Shown piece after piece: positions 2,147-28,898 of a stretch of 64,000 bases of DNA. The stretch is from Escherichia phage Phi1: sequence record EF437941; one strand, written 5' to 3'. Each line of letters starts with the position of its first letter. Positions within the stretch are counted from its first letter, which is position 1. The position numbers were made by a program, and so were the translations under genes. Below the pieces are notes generated by a model that was not told the DNA's origin, did no database searches, and saw only the letters and a program-made list of their open reading frames with translations.

Positions 2147-4009
2147 TTACATGTGCTTAACGCGGTTTACCATCTCGGAGTGTTTCCCGTGGTTAAATGG
2201 ACGCAGATCAACAGATCCAAGATATCCACTAACGCGACGGATAACATTCATTTTTTCCAGATTATCATTGCCGCAATCAGGACAAACAAAACCAGTCTCG
2301 GTCGCTCTCATTTCCTTAGTAGATCCGCATACATGACACACATCAGAAGGAGTATTAACACCGAAGTAGTGCAATTTATCCATTGCATAGTCTACTACAG
2401 TTTCAAGACCTTTCAGGTTGTTTTTCATGTCTGGGAACTCAACATAAGAGATCATGCCACCGGACGCCAGCCAGTGATAATCTTTCTCAAAGTCGATTTT
2501 CTCAAATGGAGTGACTTTCCGGTCTACGTCGAGGTGGAATGAGTTGGTGTACCAGTCTTTATCGGTAGCGCCCTTAACAATACCAAATTGCTCTCGGTCC
2601 AGTCGATTAAATCGATAGCAAAGGCTCTCGGCTGGCGTACCGTAAAGACTAAACCCAAGTCCGGTTTCGTCCTTCCATTTTTCAGTATAATGACGCAAGA
2701 TCTTAAGAATATGTTTACCGTATCGCTGCACATCTTCCGAATCAAACGGATGAACACCAAACAGGACGCTCAATACCTCATGTAAACCAATATATCCAAG
2801 AGAGATACTAGCGCGACCATCTTTCAGCACTTCAAAAATTTCATCGTTTTGATGAATACGGAAAAATGCACCTTCGGTATACAGTACAGGAGCAACATTG
2901 GCTTTAGCCCCTTTTAAAGCGTCTACGCGACTCATGAGCGCATCAAAGCAAATAGGCATACGATTAGCTAGCTCTTGTTCGAATAGCTCAATTCTGCGCA
3001 TTACAGACGCTTTACCAGCACGACGCGCGGCAATAAGGGCAATACGCGGAAGATTCAGAGTCACAACACCTAAGTTATTACGTCCGTCTAATACTTCTTC
3101 GCCTTTCTCATTATGCCACACACCCAGGAAGCTACGACAACCCATCGGGCTAACCGGAACACTAGATCCAGTGATACTACGGTTATTCTTCGCAGAGATA
3201 TAATCAGGGGTAAGACGCTTACTAGAACATTCCAATGCAAGTTGCTTAATGTCGTAGTTCGGATCTTCCGGGTTAAGGTTTAATCCTTCTTCTAAGAACA
3301 TCACCAGCTTAGGAAACACCGGAGTTATACCATCTTTACCTAAACCTTTAGTTCGAACTTTCAGGATCGCTTTCTGAATCAGTTTTTCTTCCCAGCTAGT
3401 ACCCATACCAAATGTTAAAGTCACAAAAGGCGTTTGACCGTTGGTGGAGAACAAAGTGTTGATTTCATATTCCAACGCTTGATACCCGTCTAGCGTTTCT
3501 TTTTCTGTCTTCTCTTGTGCATAGAGAGTATCAGCTTTGATTCCGTAGGTTTCGGCATCAGCAAGGTGTTTATGATATGTTTTCTCAACATACGGTGCTA
3601 ACACCTGATCGATGTTTGCAATTGTGGTCCCGCCATATTGATGACTTGCCACCTGTGCGATAATTTGAGCGGTTACAGCACAAGCAACACCGATCGATTT
3701 AGGACTTTCGATTTGTGCGCTACCCAATTTAAAACCATTCTCTAACATGTCTTTGAGATTAACAAGACAGCAGTTAGTAAACGGCATAGCGGGTGCATAA
3801 TCCATATCATGATAATGAATATCACCGTCTACATGCGCTTTATAGATGTGCTCAGGTAACACGGTTTTAGCAATCTGTTTAGACACAGCGCCAGCAATCA
3901 GATCTCGACGTGTCGGGAATGTTCGCGCGTCTTTGTTCGCGTTCTCTTTGCTTACTTCGTTTTCTTTACCCGTTGCGATCTCTGTAATGTCTTTGATTAG
4001 TTTTTCCAT
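2147..4009 (-). CDS. nrdD: anaerobic ribonucleoside-triphosphate reductase (class III, glycyl radical enzyme), uninterrupted
   Basis: 620 aa; C-terminal glycyl radical motif RVSGYLG and Cys-x2-Cys zinc ribbon (CHVCGS, CPDCG); single continuous ORF, no intron. Confidence 0.95.
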   Translation of the reverse strand: MEKLIKDITEIATGKENEVSKENANKDARTFPTRRDLIAGAVSKQIAKTVLPEHIYKAHVDGDIHYHDMDYAPAMPFTNCCLVNLKDMLENGFKLGSAQIESPKSIGVACAVTAQIIAQVASHQYGGTTIANIDQVLAPYVEKTYHKHLADAETYGIKADTLYAQEKTEKETLDGYQALEYEINTLFSTNGQTPFVTLTFGMGTSWEEKLIQKAILKVRTKGLGKDGITPVFPKLVMFLEEGLNLNPEDPNYDIKQLALECSSKRLTPDYISAKNNRSITGSSVPVSPMGCRSFLGVWHNEKGEEVLDGRNNLGVVTLNLPRIALIAARRAGKASVMRRIELFEQELANRMPICFDALMSRVDALKGAKANVAPVLYTEGAFFRIHQNDEIFEVLKDGRASISLGYIGLHEVLSVLFGVHPFDSEDVQRYGKHILKILRHYTEKWKDETGLGFSLYGTPAESLCYRFNRLDREQFGIVKGATDKDWYTNSFHLDVDRKVTPFEKIDFEKDYHWLASGGMISYVEFPDMKNNLKGLETVVDYAMDKLHYFGVNTPSDVCHVCGSTKEMRATETGFVCPDCGNDNLEKMNVIRRVSGYLGSVDLRPFNHGKHSEMVNRVKHM

Positions 4010-4021
4010 TGTATCACCTAT

Positions 4022-4044
4022 GAAAAAGCGGGATTTTCTCCCGC
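4022..4044 (-). terminator. intrinsic terminator-like hairpin immediately upstream of the nrdD RBS
   Basis: GCGGGAGAAAATCCCGC plus TTTTT on the minus strand. Confidence 0.55.
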
Positions 4045-4054
4045 TCGTTGATAG

Positions 4055-4549
4055 TTATTTTACCAGTTCTGCTAATTCTTTTTCTTTAGCTTCCAGTTCA
4101 GCCTTAAGCTGTTTAATCTCTTGTCGCTTCTTATTAGCGGCTTCCTGCTTACTATTTCGGATAATCTGATCTAGATACAACTCCCAATCCTGAATATTTT
4201 TGATAATATAACCGTCAACATTAATTGGTCGGATATTTAGTACAGCTTCCAGTTTAGTCGCAAAAACTTTAATTGCTGGTGTGAAGTATTCATATTCGTT
4301 ATCTTCAAACCAATAACCTAGACTTGCATTCTCAATGCGAAGACGAAGTTCAAGATCAAGGTCTTTATCTTCGGTGTAAAGATCTTGCACATGTCCCATC
4401 GAGCTAACAACAACTTTAAAACGAATTTTATCAACACCACCAAACACATCAGTAAGGATACCAGCAATTGAGCTATTAGCGCAAGATTGGTCGCTGAATG
4501 CGTCAAGGTTTTCTTTAGTTACAGTATACCAAACATCTTGTACCCACAT
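4055..4549 (-). CDS. hypothetical protein
   Basis: ORF behind stem-loop promoter ~4580-4607 with GAGAGGA RBS; C-terminal coiled-coil-like K/E-rich tail. Confidence 0.55.
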   Translation of the reverse strand: MWVQDVWYTVTKENLDAFSDQSCANSSIAGILTDVFGGVDKIRFKVVVSSMGHVQDLYTEDKDLDLELRLRIENASLGYWFEDNEYEYFTPAIKVFATKLEAVLNIRPINVDGYIIKNIQDWELYLDQIIRNSKQEAANKKRQEIKQLKAELEAKEKELAELVK

Positions 4550-17583: not shown

Positions 17584-17786
17584 TTACATTTAGGGCAATG
17601 CGGTTCTTTAATATAATACCCGTCTGTCTTTGGAACACTAACAGGAGCGGTTTTTATATTATATTCAGTGAAACAACGAAAACAAGTTACGTTTTCTACA
17701 GACTGACGTTTCACCCAATCACCGGAATATAGATCATTTTTATTTGTCATATTCAACCACCACAATGTTAATGTCTGGAGTAGCAA
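17556..17786 (-). CDS. small Cys-rich protein (putative zinc ribbon)
   Basis: CFRCF ... CPKCKC pairs. Confidence 0.4.
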   Translation of the reverse strand: MLLQTLTLWWLNMTNKNDLYSGDWVKRQSVENVTCFRCFTEYNIKTAPVSVPKTDGYYIKEPHCPKCKCRLYWSHL

Positions 17787-18195
17787 TATTAATAATCTCT
17801 TCTACACATTCCCACTCAAGGCCACCGATACCGCAACCGATTTTAGGAATATAGAAAGGCTGTATAGCACCTTCAAAAACATCATTGAGAGACTCAAATC
17901 CTTTCAGGATAGCACCATATTCAGCATTTGGACCCGGTCGGAATTGGGTATAGAGATTCACCCCGCACCAGTTATAACCATTAACTTGATGCGTCCAGAT
18001 ACTAAACCCACCCAACTTTTCTACCTTACCGCGAGAAGTTTGCTTGTCAATCTCTAACGCTTGCGGGAACTCTTTCGCGATCTTTGCAGCAATACCAGCG
18101 CCCATAGTATGAAAACAATTACAACCATGAATTAAATGACCGTTTCCTTGTTTAAACAGGGCGATGAGATCGCCCTTTACAGTATCAATAATCAT
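17740..18195 (-). CDS. macro domain protein (ADP-ribose binding / hydrolase fold)
   Basis: GDLIALFKQG...HGCNC....GAGIA signature typical of macro domains. Confidence 0.75.
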   Translation of the reverse strand: MIIDTVKGDLIALFKQGNGHLIHGCNCFHTMGAGIAAKIAKEFPQALEIDKQTSRGKVEKLGGFSIWTHQVNGYNWCGVNLYTQFRPGPNAEYGAILKGFESLNDVFEGAIQPFYIPKIGCGIGGLEWECVEEIINIATPDINIVVVEYDK

Positions 18196-19254: not shown

Positions 19255-19719
19255 TTATTGGTCTACCTTCAAAACAACCGCCGACATTTTACCCGCCAGT
19301 CGTTTTGGATTCTCTATAATCATTCGGCAGCATAGACCGTGATATGGCTTACCCTCTTCGATTAGATCTACTGTCATCCCGATCCACATGTTACCGTCAG
19401 TAATTTCTAATCGATTAGGTCGGTCTTCCATTTTCAGGAAGTCGAAGATCTCCGGCAAACGAGTTTCTATCTTATTGAATAGTTCCATTGTCTTATGTTC
19501 ATCAATATGACGATCGGTTAGACGGTCGATCATATGCGGACTAAAGCGAATGAAAATATACTCACCATAACCATCATTCAAGCACTTTTCTTTGATCTTC
19601 GCATTGGTTTTGCGCATTTCGGTTTCGAAGAATCTACGCAGCTTACTACGGCGAACATGTACGTTAATTGTTTCCATTTTATTATCCTTTCTTAAACAAA
19701 TTGCGAATCCAGTATACAA
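19255..19719 (-). CDS. hypothetical protein
   Basis: Tiled ORF; true start may be the internal ATG (METINVH). Confidence 0.45.
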   Translation of the reverse strand: MYTGFAICLRKDNKMETINVHVRRSKLRRFFETEMRKTNAKIKEKCLNDGYGEYIFIRFSPHMIDRLTDRHIDEHKTMELFNKIETRLPEIFDFLKMEDRPNRLEITDGNMWIGMTVDLIEEGKPYHGLCCRMIIENPKRLAGKMSAVVLKVDQ

Positions 19720-20017
19720 ACGGGATTTCTTTAAACTTGAATTTCTCTATAGTTAATTCTTTAGTAGCAAGATGAATACCATAAGCATCATGTGTCACGA
19801 TATGCCATTTTCTATAGTCCAAATGTGAACAACCGTCTGGATCTAGGTTAATAAGAGTTTCTCGCTCACTAGGATTATTTTTCCACAATTTTGTAATAGG
19901 ATCGCACATAATTCGACCTAGCGTACCATGAATAATCTCACAACGGTAAAGTTTTCCAGCAGTGAGATAGGCGCACCCGTCATAGTCGGTATAAACAAAC
20001 ACTTCTTTAACACTCAT
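19682..20017 (-). CDS. hypothetical protein (paralog family C)
   Basis: GCSHL...W motif shared with 20075..20335 and 20317..20511; start after AAGGAGTATTAAA behind promoter ~20046-20074. Confidence 0.5.
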   Translation of the reverse strand: MSVKEVFVYTDYDGCAYLTAGKLYRCEIIHGTLGRIMCDPITKLWKNNPSERETLINLDPDGCSHLDYRKWHIVTHDAYGIHLATKELTIEKFKFKEIPFVYWIRNLFKKG

Positions 20018-20045
20018 TTTAATACTCCTTTGTTTCGATGGGGGT

Positions 20046-20074
20046 ATATTACTACCCCCGTTTTGTTGTGTCAA
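20046..20074 (-). promoter_or_regulatory. early promoter with stem-loop (PeSL-like)
   Basis: TTGACA-N17-TAATAT; inverted repeat GGGGGTAGTAAT/ATACCCCC. Confidence 0.55.
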
Positions 20075-20335
20075 CTACTTTTTCAAGATTTTTTTAATTG
20101 CGTTCCAAAGACCTTTATTCTCAGGTTGTTTTGGTTCTTCGATCAGTGTCCAGGTTCGACCGTCTAAGTGTGCACAATTTTTAAGACAAATAAAAATCTG
20201 GTGTCCCTTATCATCACGGATATAACCACTATTCGCAAATCTTTCATGTGGTGTATATTCATACAGTGTATTTGGTGTAATATACTTGCGGTTACTATAA
20301 GGTGTCATCACATACATCATGGTACTAACTCCCAT
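20075..20335 (-). CDS. hypothetical protein (paralog family C)
   Basis: Shares the C(A/S)HL-D-x-(R/K)-x-W motif. Confidence 0.5.
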   Translation of the reverse strand: MGVSTMMYVMTPYSNRKYITPNTLYEYTPHERFANSGYIRDDKGHQIFICLKNCAHLDGRTWTLIEEPKQPENKGLWNAIKKILKK

Positions 20336-20511
20336 TTATCACCGCGAAGATGAGAACATCCACCATCAAGAAGGATCGTAATACGAAACCCCGCATCATC
20401 TTCAATATACCCGATAGTCGGTGGATATTCGTCGTCTCGTGCCGGGGTAAAATCATACATCTTTCCCGGTGTGATATCAGTGCCTTTATTGCTATTGGTA
20501 TAAACTTGCAT
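20317..20511 (-). CDS. hypothetical protein (paralog family C)
   Basis: Shares the GCSHL motif. Confidence 0.5.
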   Translation of the reverse strand: MQVYTNSNKGTDITPGKMYDFTPARDDEYPPTIGYIEDDAGFRITILLDGGCSHLRGDKWELVP

Positions 20512-20532: not shown

Positions 20533-21231
20533 CTAACCACGGGTATAGTGTTCCAGAACAACTGTCAGATGAATATATTCTAATAGATCTTTCCAAAAGT
20601 CAACATCTGGTTCTTCCGGCATACCGTTTTTCTTTGCCTCTTCACGAGCGAGTTTAACACGCTCGTAGAGATCTTTCAATTCTTCCCGCACATTATCAAA
20701 GGTTCTTTCTCCTAACTTACACGCTAAAATAGAAGAACGTCGCGCGAGCGGGAATTGTAGATCACCTGTCTGATAGATTTCAAGTAGCTGATAACCAACA
20801 CGCAGAGCATGAGAAAGATCTTTCCAGTTACTGAAATACTTTTCAGATTTGGCTACCTGTTTCTTGAGATAACCAGACAAACCCCACATCCCAACATGAT
20901 AGAATTTATCGCGATGTGTTCGGATGTATTCCCATTCTCTGGAGGATTCGATCAACATGTTACTAGGAGCGTGCACCATGTCAATAGCGCCGATATCACC
21001 TTTACATGCCAGATTGATAAACCGTTTTAGACTGAACATATTAACGTCAATATCGTCTTTGGTGTTCTTGATACCTTGACCGCTAGTGCTTTGGTCATAG
21101 TGTTCTTTCATCGATCCTAAGATAATTTCTTTCGCAGTCGGAACAAAGATACCACGATAATCTTTATCGGAATTTTCAGTATCAAGGCCGTATAAGTGAG
21201 ATCCGAAGACCATTTTAACCATTGTATGCAT
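20533..21231 (-). CDS. Pol-beta superfamily nucleotidyltransferase-like protein
   Basis: N-terminal GSHLYGLDTENSDKDYRGIF matches the hG[GS]x(9-13)[DE]h[DE]h nucleotidyltransferase signature. Confidence 0.6.
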   Translation of the reverse strand: MHTMVKMVFGSHLYGLDTENSDKDYRGIFVPTAKEIILGSMKEHYDQSTSGQGIKNTKDDIDVNMFSLKRFINLACKGDIGAIDMVHAPSNMLIESSREWEYIRTHRDKFYHVGMWGLSGYLKKQVAKSEKYFSNWKDLSHALRVGYQLLEIYQTGDLQFPLARRSSILACKLGERTFDNVREELKDLYERVKLAREEAKKNGMPEEPDVDFWKDLLEYIHLTVVLEHYTRG

Positions 21232-21273
21232 AATTAAACCCTCAGTTGATTAAGAGATTGCATCATATCATCA

Positions 21274-21308
21274 TAAAACGAAAAAGCCAACCCTTTTCGG
21301 ATTGGCTT
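21274..21308 (-). terminator. intrinsic terminator after the GrcA-like gene
   Basis: Hairpin AAGCCAATCCGAAAAGGGTTGGCTT plus TTTTTCGTTTT on the minus strand. Confidence 0.7.
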
Positions 21309-21317
21309 GATGAAAAA

Positions 21318-21734
21318 TTAGAGAGATTCGGTAAAGGTACGCGCGATAACGTCACGCTGCTGGTCTGGAGTCAGACTATTGAAGCGCACCGCGTAACCAG
21401 AAACGCGAATTGTAAGCTGCGGGTACTTCTCAGGATGTTCAACAGCGTCCAGCAACATTTCTCGTAACAATACGTTAACATTCAAATGCTGACCACCTTC
21501 GACAACCGGAGCACCATTATCTACAATGACAGGGCGGAAGCTAGTTGTGTGCAGTGCCAGCGAATCGACGTCTTCTGCGGTGATCACATGATCTTCTGCG
21601 AAAGTTTTACTAACAATTACTTTAGCGCCGATCAGTGCTTTCGGTTCGGATACCAGAATCATAGGCGCGAAGTGTCCACCAATAATAGTACCTTTATGCT
21701 CACCTTTCATGATTTGAATTGCTTTAAATTCCAT
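21318..21734 (-). CDS. autonomous glycyl radical cofactor (GrcA/YfiD-like)
   Basis: C-terminal [13 protein letters not shown] glycyl-radical motif; C-terminal ~60 aa closely resemble E. coli GrcA as recalled. Confidence 0.85.
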
Positions 21735-28427: not shown

Positions 28428-28898
28428 TTACAGTTTGGTCGTCCACTCCAGGTCTAGATCTTCGACATATTCATGAGATCGGACAATCTCTAAATCGAAC
28501 TCTAGGTCAGTGCCAAATTTACGCGCACCAACATCATAAGAAAGCGTGATATGCGGTACATATTCAGGATAATCCCACGTCGCACCTAAAGCAGTTCCGA
28601 TATCGTGTCTGAATTGCATGTAGTCGCTTTCAAATGCCAACACAAGCGCATTAGTACCGGATTGAGTTTCAAACACTTTCAGATGGCATAGAGAGCCTAA
28701 AAACTTTTCACCCTCTTCTGGGATAAACGGAACATAGACACGAGAATATAAGATAGTGCTATGCAGTTTATCACGAGGAACGGCATTAGGCAGATCGTAG
28801 AACTCCTGCAATTTTTCAATGCGGTCTAGTGTATCCTCAGTGAATTTAACAGCCGCATATGTACCTTTAACGGATTCTCGAAACGGGGTCATAATCAA
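28428..28898 (-). CDS. 57B: gp57B-like protein
   Basis: Size (156 aa) and position immediately downstream of 57A in the 1-57A-57B order of T4; synteny only. Confidence 0.45.
   Translation of the reverse strand: MIMTPFRESVKGTYAAVKFTEDTLDRIEKLQEFYDLPNAVPRDKLHSTILYSRVYVPFIPEEGEKFLGSLCHLKVFETQSGTNALVLAFESDYMQFRHDIGTALGATWDYPEYVPHITLSYDVGARKFGTDLEFDLEIVRSHEYVEDLDLEWTTKL

Follow-up and report, generated by a model that had tools for sequence, protein, structure and literature searches.

NrdC.11 of Escherichia phage Phi1, a short RlaP-family nucleotidyltransferase with a possible role in tRNA repair

The 64,000-nucleotide stretch of Escherichia phage Phi1 DNA analysed here (sequence record EF437941; referred to below as the window) carries, within a long series of small minus-strand genes, an open reading frame (ORF) whose 232-residue product had been called a Pol-beta-type nucleotidyltransferase (NTase) in a sequence-only reading. 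The ORF opens with an ATG at 21231 and runs through 232 codons to a stop codon at 20533-20535; the coordinates 20533-21231 assigned in that reading are correct, and the strand, which it did not give, is minus according to the ORF list. Over the surrounding 4 kb, 57 phage records match in all, the best of them, RB49 and GEC-3S included, being Krischvirus genomes (Straboviridae) with 97.7-98.8% identity, and the RB49 counterpart of the gene, at 98.3% nucleotide identity, is nrdC.11 (RB49p098, NP_891669.1; RefSeq product 'nucleotidyltransferase', with the note 'similar to T4 tk.-11'). On its upstream side nrdC.11 is bordered by vs.6, which encodes a glycyl-radical protein, vs.8 and an M15 endolysin gene, and on its downstream side by three small ORFs, then regB (RegB endoribonuclease, about 800 bp away) and, further on, dmd.

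The features that we assign to the gene and its protein are collected in Table 1. Besides its own Shine-Dalgarno sequence, nrdC.11 is preceded by a promoter candidate with 9 of 12 consensus matches and a TG extension, which would drive nrdC.11 and the three small ORFs downstream, judging from the consensus scan. This candidate (21290-21262) is overlapped by a terminator-like hairpin (21308-21284) lying directly upstream of nrdC.11, and a terminator is annotated at the matching position in phage GEC-3S. With the run of small minus-strand genes and the terminator and promoter candidate directly upstream, the earlier assignment of the gene to an early region is reasonable. Two plus-strand ORFs overlapping nrdC.11, 20809-21030 and 20924-21079, were judged spurious.

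Table 1. Coordinates of nrdC.11, its protein domains and motifs, and its candidate expression signals in the window
Feature	Position	Strand	Basis
nrdC.11 coding sequence (RlaP-family nucleotidyltransferase, 232 residues)	20533..21231	minus	ORF list, Pfam, PHROG, RB49 identity
N-terminal Pol-beta nucleotidyltransferase domain, residues 1 to ~112 (mixed beta-sheet and helices)	20896..21231	minus	
Codons G10-S11 to D22-K23-D24 (hG[GS] turn and first two metal-binding aspartates)	21160..21204	minus	conservation
Codons D60-I61-D62 in the KNTKDDxD block (candidate third catalytic carboxylate)	21046..21054	minus	conservation
C-terminal helical domain, residues ~116-232 (five long helices including terminal helix 210-230)	20536..20886	minus	
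Codons K137-D-L-S-H141-A-L-R144 (conserved basic motif of the helical domain)	20800..20823	minus	conservation
Shine-Dalgarno GAGGG, 7 nt 5' of the nrdC.11 ATG	21239..21243	minus	read from sequence
Sigma-70-like promoter candidate (TTGGCT, 17-nt spacer, TG-extended TATGAT)	21262..21290	minus	consensus scan
Intrinsic-terminator-like hairpin (10-bp stem and T-run), ending the upstream vs.6 transcript	21284..21308	minus	terminator scan

The protein falls in the RlaP family (PF10127, 'RNA repair pathway DNA polymerase beta family'), where it represents the RB49-type orthologue of T4 NrdC.11. The Pfam model matches with E=3.4e-14 and 53.6 bits (gathering score 23), its positions 24-198 aligning to residues 7-191 in one unbroken stretch, and PHROG 388 'nucleotidyltransferase' matches with E=2e-79, while no other Pfam family was found at E<=1 and the NCBIfam and PADLOC searches returned no informative match and none to an NTase. 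Profile, alignment and fold evidence thus agree with the Pol-beta-superfamily call, and the profile search that had been suggested as a check placed the protein in RlaP, with no match to a non-catalytic family seen. Other groups of the superfamily, among them those that the sequence-only reading had named as examples, do not include the protein: minimal NTases including the MNT antitoxins, CCA-adding enzymes with the poly(A) polymerases, and cyclic-nucleotide synthases (CD-NTase, cGAS-like) were each considered and gave no match in Pfam, NCBIfam or PADLOC.

A word-indexed protein search yielded 288 homologues, with PF10127 carried by all 120 among the matches listed, and in an exhaustive search of 1.84 billion representatives 3,575 passed E<=1e-3, of which 190 also passed E<=1e-30. 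By tblastn the protein was found in 1,618 phage records, mostly T4-like phages of enterobacteria, Aeromonas and Acinetobacter, the others being Mycobacterium, Gordonia and Bacillus phages. Homologues go by the name nrdC.11 in Bp7, VR7, RB69 and RB49, and a comparative paper of 2006 had matched nrdC.11 orthologues to the COG3541 nucleotidyltransferase domain (PMC1524935); gene and family are already known, and what is new here is confined to the shortened layout of the Krischvirus protein described below. Many GenBank and UniRef records name NrdC.11 orthologues 'thioredoxin', apparently because of the nrdC prefix, and one reads 'putative HNH homing endonuclease'; all of them carry PF10127. The gene should be annotated as RlaP-family RNA 3'-nucleotidyltransferase (NrdC.11).

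The catalytic residues expected of the superfamily are present and conserved. F9-G10-S11 is followed, 10 residues on, by D22-K23-D24-Y25, as in the pattern hG[GS]-x9-13-[DE]x[DE]h, and the peptide on which the sequence-only reading had relied corresponds to residues 10-29; with the RlaP and PHROG scores given above and the conservation of these residues, its match to the hG[GS]...[DE]h[DE]h signature is not due to chance. Across 20 aligned close homologues, G10, S11, D22, D24, D60, D62 and 33 further positions are invariant. When the set is widened to proteins from Bacillaceae, planctomycetes, a mycobacteriophage and a Bacillus phage, G10, S11, S21, D22, P31, D60, G78, K137 and R144 remain invariant, and Y14, G15, D24, G27, K55, N56, D62, F71, F110, Y121, H141, G174, P205 and D209 are at least 90% conserved. 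The acidic triad, whose conservation had been named as one of the points on which the call would stand or fall, is accordingly kept across phage and bacterial members, whether its third carboxylate is taken as the invariant D60 or as D62.

The AlphaFold model of the protein is confident (predicted local distance difference test, pLDDT, 89.2; predicted template-modelling score, pTM, 0.85) and features an alpha/beta NTase domain that reaches approximately residue 112 and, after it, five long helices, of which the final one spans 210-230. In this model the alpha-beta-alpha-beta-alpha-beta core of the Pol-beta superfamily is found, with G10-S11 ending strand 1, D22/D24 starting strand 2 (24-30) and D60/D62 starting strand 62-67, and such a placement of the three motifs at strand ends, as modelled, fits the Pol-beta fold. 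The nearest solved folds, in a set of Protein Data Bank (PDB) structures without any RlaP, belong to NTases that polymerise or transfer nucleotides and share the two-domain layout of the phage protein; in the KNTase ANT(4'), AAD(9) and LinB, as in the phage protein, a Pol-beta NTase domain is followed by a helical, HEPN-related substrate-binding domain. Searches of PDB chain sequences with the protein and with two profiles gave chance matches only. The C-terminal ~120 residues are a helical, HEPN/KNTase-C-like domain that belongs to the RlaP family model. The sequence-only reading had set this region apart as an extension and recognised no motif in it; the extension is instead part of the family model and carries WK137-x3-H141-x2-R144, a candidate contact for the triphosphate or for RNA phosphate. 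A canonical HEPN Rx4-6H motif was also considered, R107-x4-H112 having the right spacing, and was rejected because H112 is not conserved.

The Krischvirus enzyme differs from its best-known relatives in architecture. T4 NrdC.11 and its Straboviridae orthologues share 42-48% identity with it over both conserved halves, together with the identical motifs GSHLYG, SDxD, KNTKDDxD and WKxxSHAxR, and in both groups the gene is early, on the minus strand and not essential. Members of this orthologous group occur in about 1,560 phage records. The T4-type proteins, however, measure ~302-344 residues against 232 and hold, between the NTase and helical domains, a ~100-residue alpha/beta module that the Krischvirus protein lacks; the genes also differ in setting, the Krischvirus one lying between vs.6 and the regB block and the T4-type one beside mobD and nrdC.x genes. 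Nearly all close relatives are 302-344 residues long, and their matches are split in two pieces, whereas the Krischvirus protein and its 57%-identical relative P0002 (234 residues) both lack the ~100 residues. The insertion contains the nearly invariant residues KYGxKGSR ... YGERARxAxxN and folds, in a model of the long form P0037, as a separate alpha/beta module spanning residues 131-240. Alignment to the Pfam model is interrupted, near residue 134, in the long forms alone and runs unbroken through the short one, so the short layout is canonical for the RlaP family.

In a neighbour-joining tree, which is crude and has an outgroup that is not monophyletic, the Krischvirus pair is nested among long forms and four other short representatives are scattered singly, and one of these four (P0153) keeps the first insertion residues (KYGIKGSKL). 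This scatter and the remnant in P0153 suggest that the module was lost repeatedly and independently. By tblastn, neither the window nor 72 kb of RB49, together ~136 kb of Krischvirus sequence, yielded a free-standing copy of the module. The P0002 gene lies in an order shared with the window (M15 endolysin, vs.8-like, vs.6, then an HNH homing-endonuclease insertion, RlaP and small ORFs), which makes the short form a long-standing and stable trait of the lineage. The inserted gene, an HNH/NUMOD4 homing endonuclease at 3951-4547 of the metagenomic Krischvirus-like contig that carries P0002, sits between vs.6 and the RlaP gene at a point corresponding to the terminator/promoter spacer of the window. 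At the codon level, 10 synonymous differences and one non-synonymous difference (I94V) separate the gene from RB49, and six synonymous and no non-synonymous ones from GEC-3S; nrdC.11 is under purifying selection (16 synonymous versus 1 non-synonymous in total). The RB49-type enzyme, as the smallest natural version in its clade, would be convenient for biochemistry and clean genetics.

What such an enzyme might do is best approached from bacterial RlaPs. As relayed in two later papers, the name RlaP was chosen by Burroughs and Aravind because the gene is often linked to RNA ligases, and they predicted a role in replacing, ahead of ligation, the nucleotides that damaged RNA ends have lost (PMC7824862, PMC12776372), and in jumbo phages the distribution of RlaP mirrors that of RNA ligases (PMC7824862). 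A preprint of December 2025 studied two Pseudomonas RlaPs, from P. fluorescens and P. aeruginosa, whose genes lie between rtcB and rtcA (PMC12776372). Both label RNA but not DNA or protein, require an RNA 3'-OH, extend it by one or two nucleotides with any NTP or with dATP, are most active in the presence of Mn2+ or Co2+, favour the 5' half of a cleaved-tRNA mimic, and partly restore the aminoacylation of a tRNA-Asp missing one anticodon-loop nucleotide, and RlaP was proposed to be an antidote to cut-and-trim ribotoxins such as RloC (PMC12776372). RloC takes out the wobble nucleotide, a loss that was expected to be beyond repair by T4 Pnkp and Rnl1 (PMC2610378). The Pseudomonas enzymes share PF10127 with the phage protein, to which the bacterial-dominated Pfam model aligns continuously. 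The P. fluorescens enzyme (PfRlaP) is of the same size class, and its crystal structure, compared by its description only, has an N-terminal NTase domain that contains three conserved Asp and is followed by a helical domain, the last helix being packed back on the NTase domain; the phage model has the same domain order and its own terminal helix.

The first RNA-repair system to be recognised came from T4, in which Pnkp and Rnl1 act against PrrC. A loose end in that system is how it copes with nucleases, such as RloC, that also excise a nucleotide, and NrdC.11/RlaP, nearly universal in T4-like phages, is the obvious candidate for a third component beside Pnkp and Rnl1, a question already posed in the literature. 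With moderate confidence, we regard the refilling of nucleotides trimmed from host-cleaved tRNA before resealing by Pnkp and Rnl1 as the likeliest role of NrdC.11, substrate and role being extrapolated here from another RlaP branch onto the family, fold and residues found for the phage protein. Among the roles listed in the sequence-only reading (tRNA repair, nucleotide signalling, protein nucleotidylation, counter-defence), RNA or tRNA repair as counter-defence is the best supported, by way of the bacterial biochemistry (PMC12776372). In this model NrdC.11 would be made early from its own promoter and would rely on D22, D24 and D60/D62 to hold two divalent metals (probably Mn2+) for the template-free addition of one nucleotide or two to the 3'-OH of broken RNA, the presumed favoured substrate being the 5' half left by cleavage of a tRNA in its anticodon loop, all by analogy with the Pseudomonas enzymes. 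Host anticodon nucleases such as RloC would cut a tRNA and remove a nucleotide, so that simple heal-and-seal repair is defeated; Pnkp would take off the 3'-phosphate, the NTase would then put a nucleotide back, and Rnl1 could seal an anticodon loop of full length, so that part of the tRNA pool would work again. The presumed ligase partner would be phage Rnl1, a 5'-phosphate ligase, and not RtcB as in Pseudomonas.

The presumed partners are encoded by the same phages. RB49 carries pseT (Pnkp), rnlA (Rnl1) and a second kinase-like gene, and the NTase, PseT and RnlA each have matches of at least 95% in 57 phage records, all three occurring in 57 of 57 Krischvirus records. Counted by host genus in the T4-like host groups, records with the NTase and with Rnl1 number 605 and 635 for Escherichia, 285 and 287 for Klebsiella, 83 and 83 for Shigella, 75 and 77 for Aeromonas, 69 and 69 for Acinetobacter, and 56 and 56 for Enterobacter. 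The second kinase-like gene of RB49 (RB49p229, 132333-132809) encodes a short 'polynucleotide kinase'-like protein and adjoins nrdB; it could be a further RNA-end-healing component.

Several observations weigh against a repair role. The near-equal counts fit a shared pathway but fit shared descent equally well. While the Pseudomonas genes lie between rtcB and rtcA under RtcR control, the phage gene has no ligase neighbour: in RB49, pseT, rnlA and the second kinase-like gene are ~75 kb from nrdC.11, neither tblastn nor ORF annotation revealed Pnkp, Rnl1, the kinase-like protein or another ligase in the 64-kb window, and the ORFs at the end of the window, scanned for Rnl2, are a prohead protease and a scaffold instead. 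Among bacteria, a Pfam scan of 85 genes flanking 22 short-form relatives (Bacillaceae and others) found no RtcB, RNA ligase, Pnkp or Hen1, the neighbourhoods consisting of heterogeneous housekeeping genes, and RlaP-like genes in a mycobacteriophage and a Bacillus phage adjoin nrd or glutaredoxin genes, with no ligase. T4 tolerates deletion of nrdC.11-mobD.3 in the laboratory (PMC9825161), so that any role must be conditional, as expected of a counter-defence gene. We found no paper in the literature assaying a phage RlaP, and the preprint, which labels T4 NrdC.11 'of unknown function', places it in PF10127 but in cluster 5 of a sequence similarity network, the assayed enzymes being in cluster 1a (PMC12776372). 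Finally, an enzyme adding nucleotides without a template would supply the right base in only a share of cases, and a benefit in vivo is hypothetical for the phage and bacterial enzymes alike.

As an alternative, NrdC.11 could tail RNA 3' ends outside repair, short tails steering the decay of transcripts or fragments or topping up tRNA 3' ends within an early RNA-metabolism programme; the bacterial enzymes label rRNA-sized, tRNA-sized and plain single-stranded RNA with all four NTPs (PMC12776372), and the gene, itself free of an adjacent ligase, stands in a block of early RNA-directed functions with regB and dmd. We nevertheless think this unlikely, as addition ends after one or two nucleotides, the assayed enzymes act on the broken end of the anticodon loop in preference to the acceptor end, no partner that would couple tailing to decay is apparent, and the clustering with regB is not conserved, the T4-type gene having its place among mobD and the nrdC.x genes. 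That the enzyme instead nucleotidylates a protein or a small molecule, by AMPylating a host HEPN-type toxin as MNT does or by modifying a metabolite or antibiotic in the manner of KNTase, ANT and LinB, seems to us very unlikely, even with fold matches to KNTase/ANT(4'), LinB, AAD(9), DrrA and MNT-HEPN complexes, a HEPN-like C-terminal domain, and homologues in unrelated phages that adjoin genes of nucleotide metabolism (nrd, glutaredoxin). There is also little to commend the view that the short form is a decaying remnant, a Krischvirus protein that became inactive on losing the ~100-residue insertion and whose ORF lingers with no function: the protein does lack a module (KYGxKGSR ... YGERAR ... 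N) kept in almost all close relatives, with no separate copy in the ~136 kb searched, but all catalytic residues are kept, substitutions among Krischviruses are overwhelmingly synonymous, the short orthologue P0002 is retained in synteny, the short layout is the canonical one by its unbroken Pfam alignment, and the gene has a confident fold model, its own Shine-Dalgarno sequence and a promoter candidate. We find it scarcely credible.

The Hailong NTase HalB (PDB 9dbh) provides a further comparison. In the Hailong system, oligodeoxyadenylate keeps the HalA channel closed, and by analogy a phage enzyme making short (deoxy)adenylates or other oligonucleotides could mimic or replenish an inhibitory signal of host immunity. 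HalB is nonetheless only 12-15% identical to the phage protein, with no sequence relationship detectable by profiles and no hit in single-sequence or profile searches of PDB sequences; it is tyrosine-primed, processive and dATP-specific, while the assayed RlaPs need an RNA 3'-OH primer, stop after one or two nucleotides and leave protein unlabelled. HalB is moreover paired with a HalA channel gene, and no HalA-like partner gene was seen beside nrdC.11. With no PADLOC match and a fold similarity of a kind common to all KNTase-like two-domain NTases, a HalB-like counter-defence synthase is highly improbable. A broader version, in which the Krischvirus protein is a minimised HalB-like oligonucleotide-making or RNA-tagging enzyme directed against host immunity other than anticodon nucleases, is likewise a long shot; if true, it might counter the host with an oligonucleotide that acts as a decoy or inhibitor, or protect RNA 3' ends from a tRNA-targeting effector by capping them, and the repeated loss of the T4-type insertion module would mark a switch of substrate. 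Refilling of trimmed tRNA ends ahead of Pnkp and Rnl1 is the role that we continue to favour.

Other genes around nrdC.11 and its relatives deserve mention. The RlaP-like genes of temperate Mycobacterium phage AvadaKedavra (3995-4747 of the examined locus) and of Bacillus phage BMBsp2 (3950-4711) lie beside an NrdH-like glutaredoxin gene or nrdA/nrdB; these neighbours echo the position of the T4 gene in the nrdC cluster, which could be coincidence or could reflect a link to nucleotide metabolism. The three small ORFs directly downstream of nrdC.11 are in tandem on the minus strand (20317-20511, 20075-20335 and 19682-20074; 64, 86 and 130 residues). No Pfam match was obtained for any of them, and they are paralogues at 36-42% identity with common Y..T, I.L, C.HL and W positions; they probably share one transcription unit with nrdC.11. 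On the other side, the product of vs.6 (21318-21734, minus) carries a C-terminal glycyl-radical motif and resembles the autonomous glycyl-radical cofactor (1.5e-16). Elsewhere in the window, Tk.4 (17740-18195, minus) contains a Macro domain (6e-07), and the homologue of gene 57B (28428-28898, minus) matches Pfam Acb1, an anti-CBASS 2H phosphodiesterase, at 1.5e-51, so that its RefSeq product name in RB49, 'RNA ligase', looks misleading.

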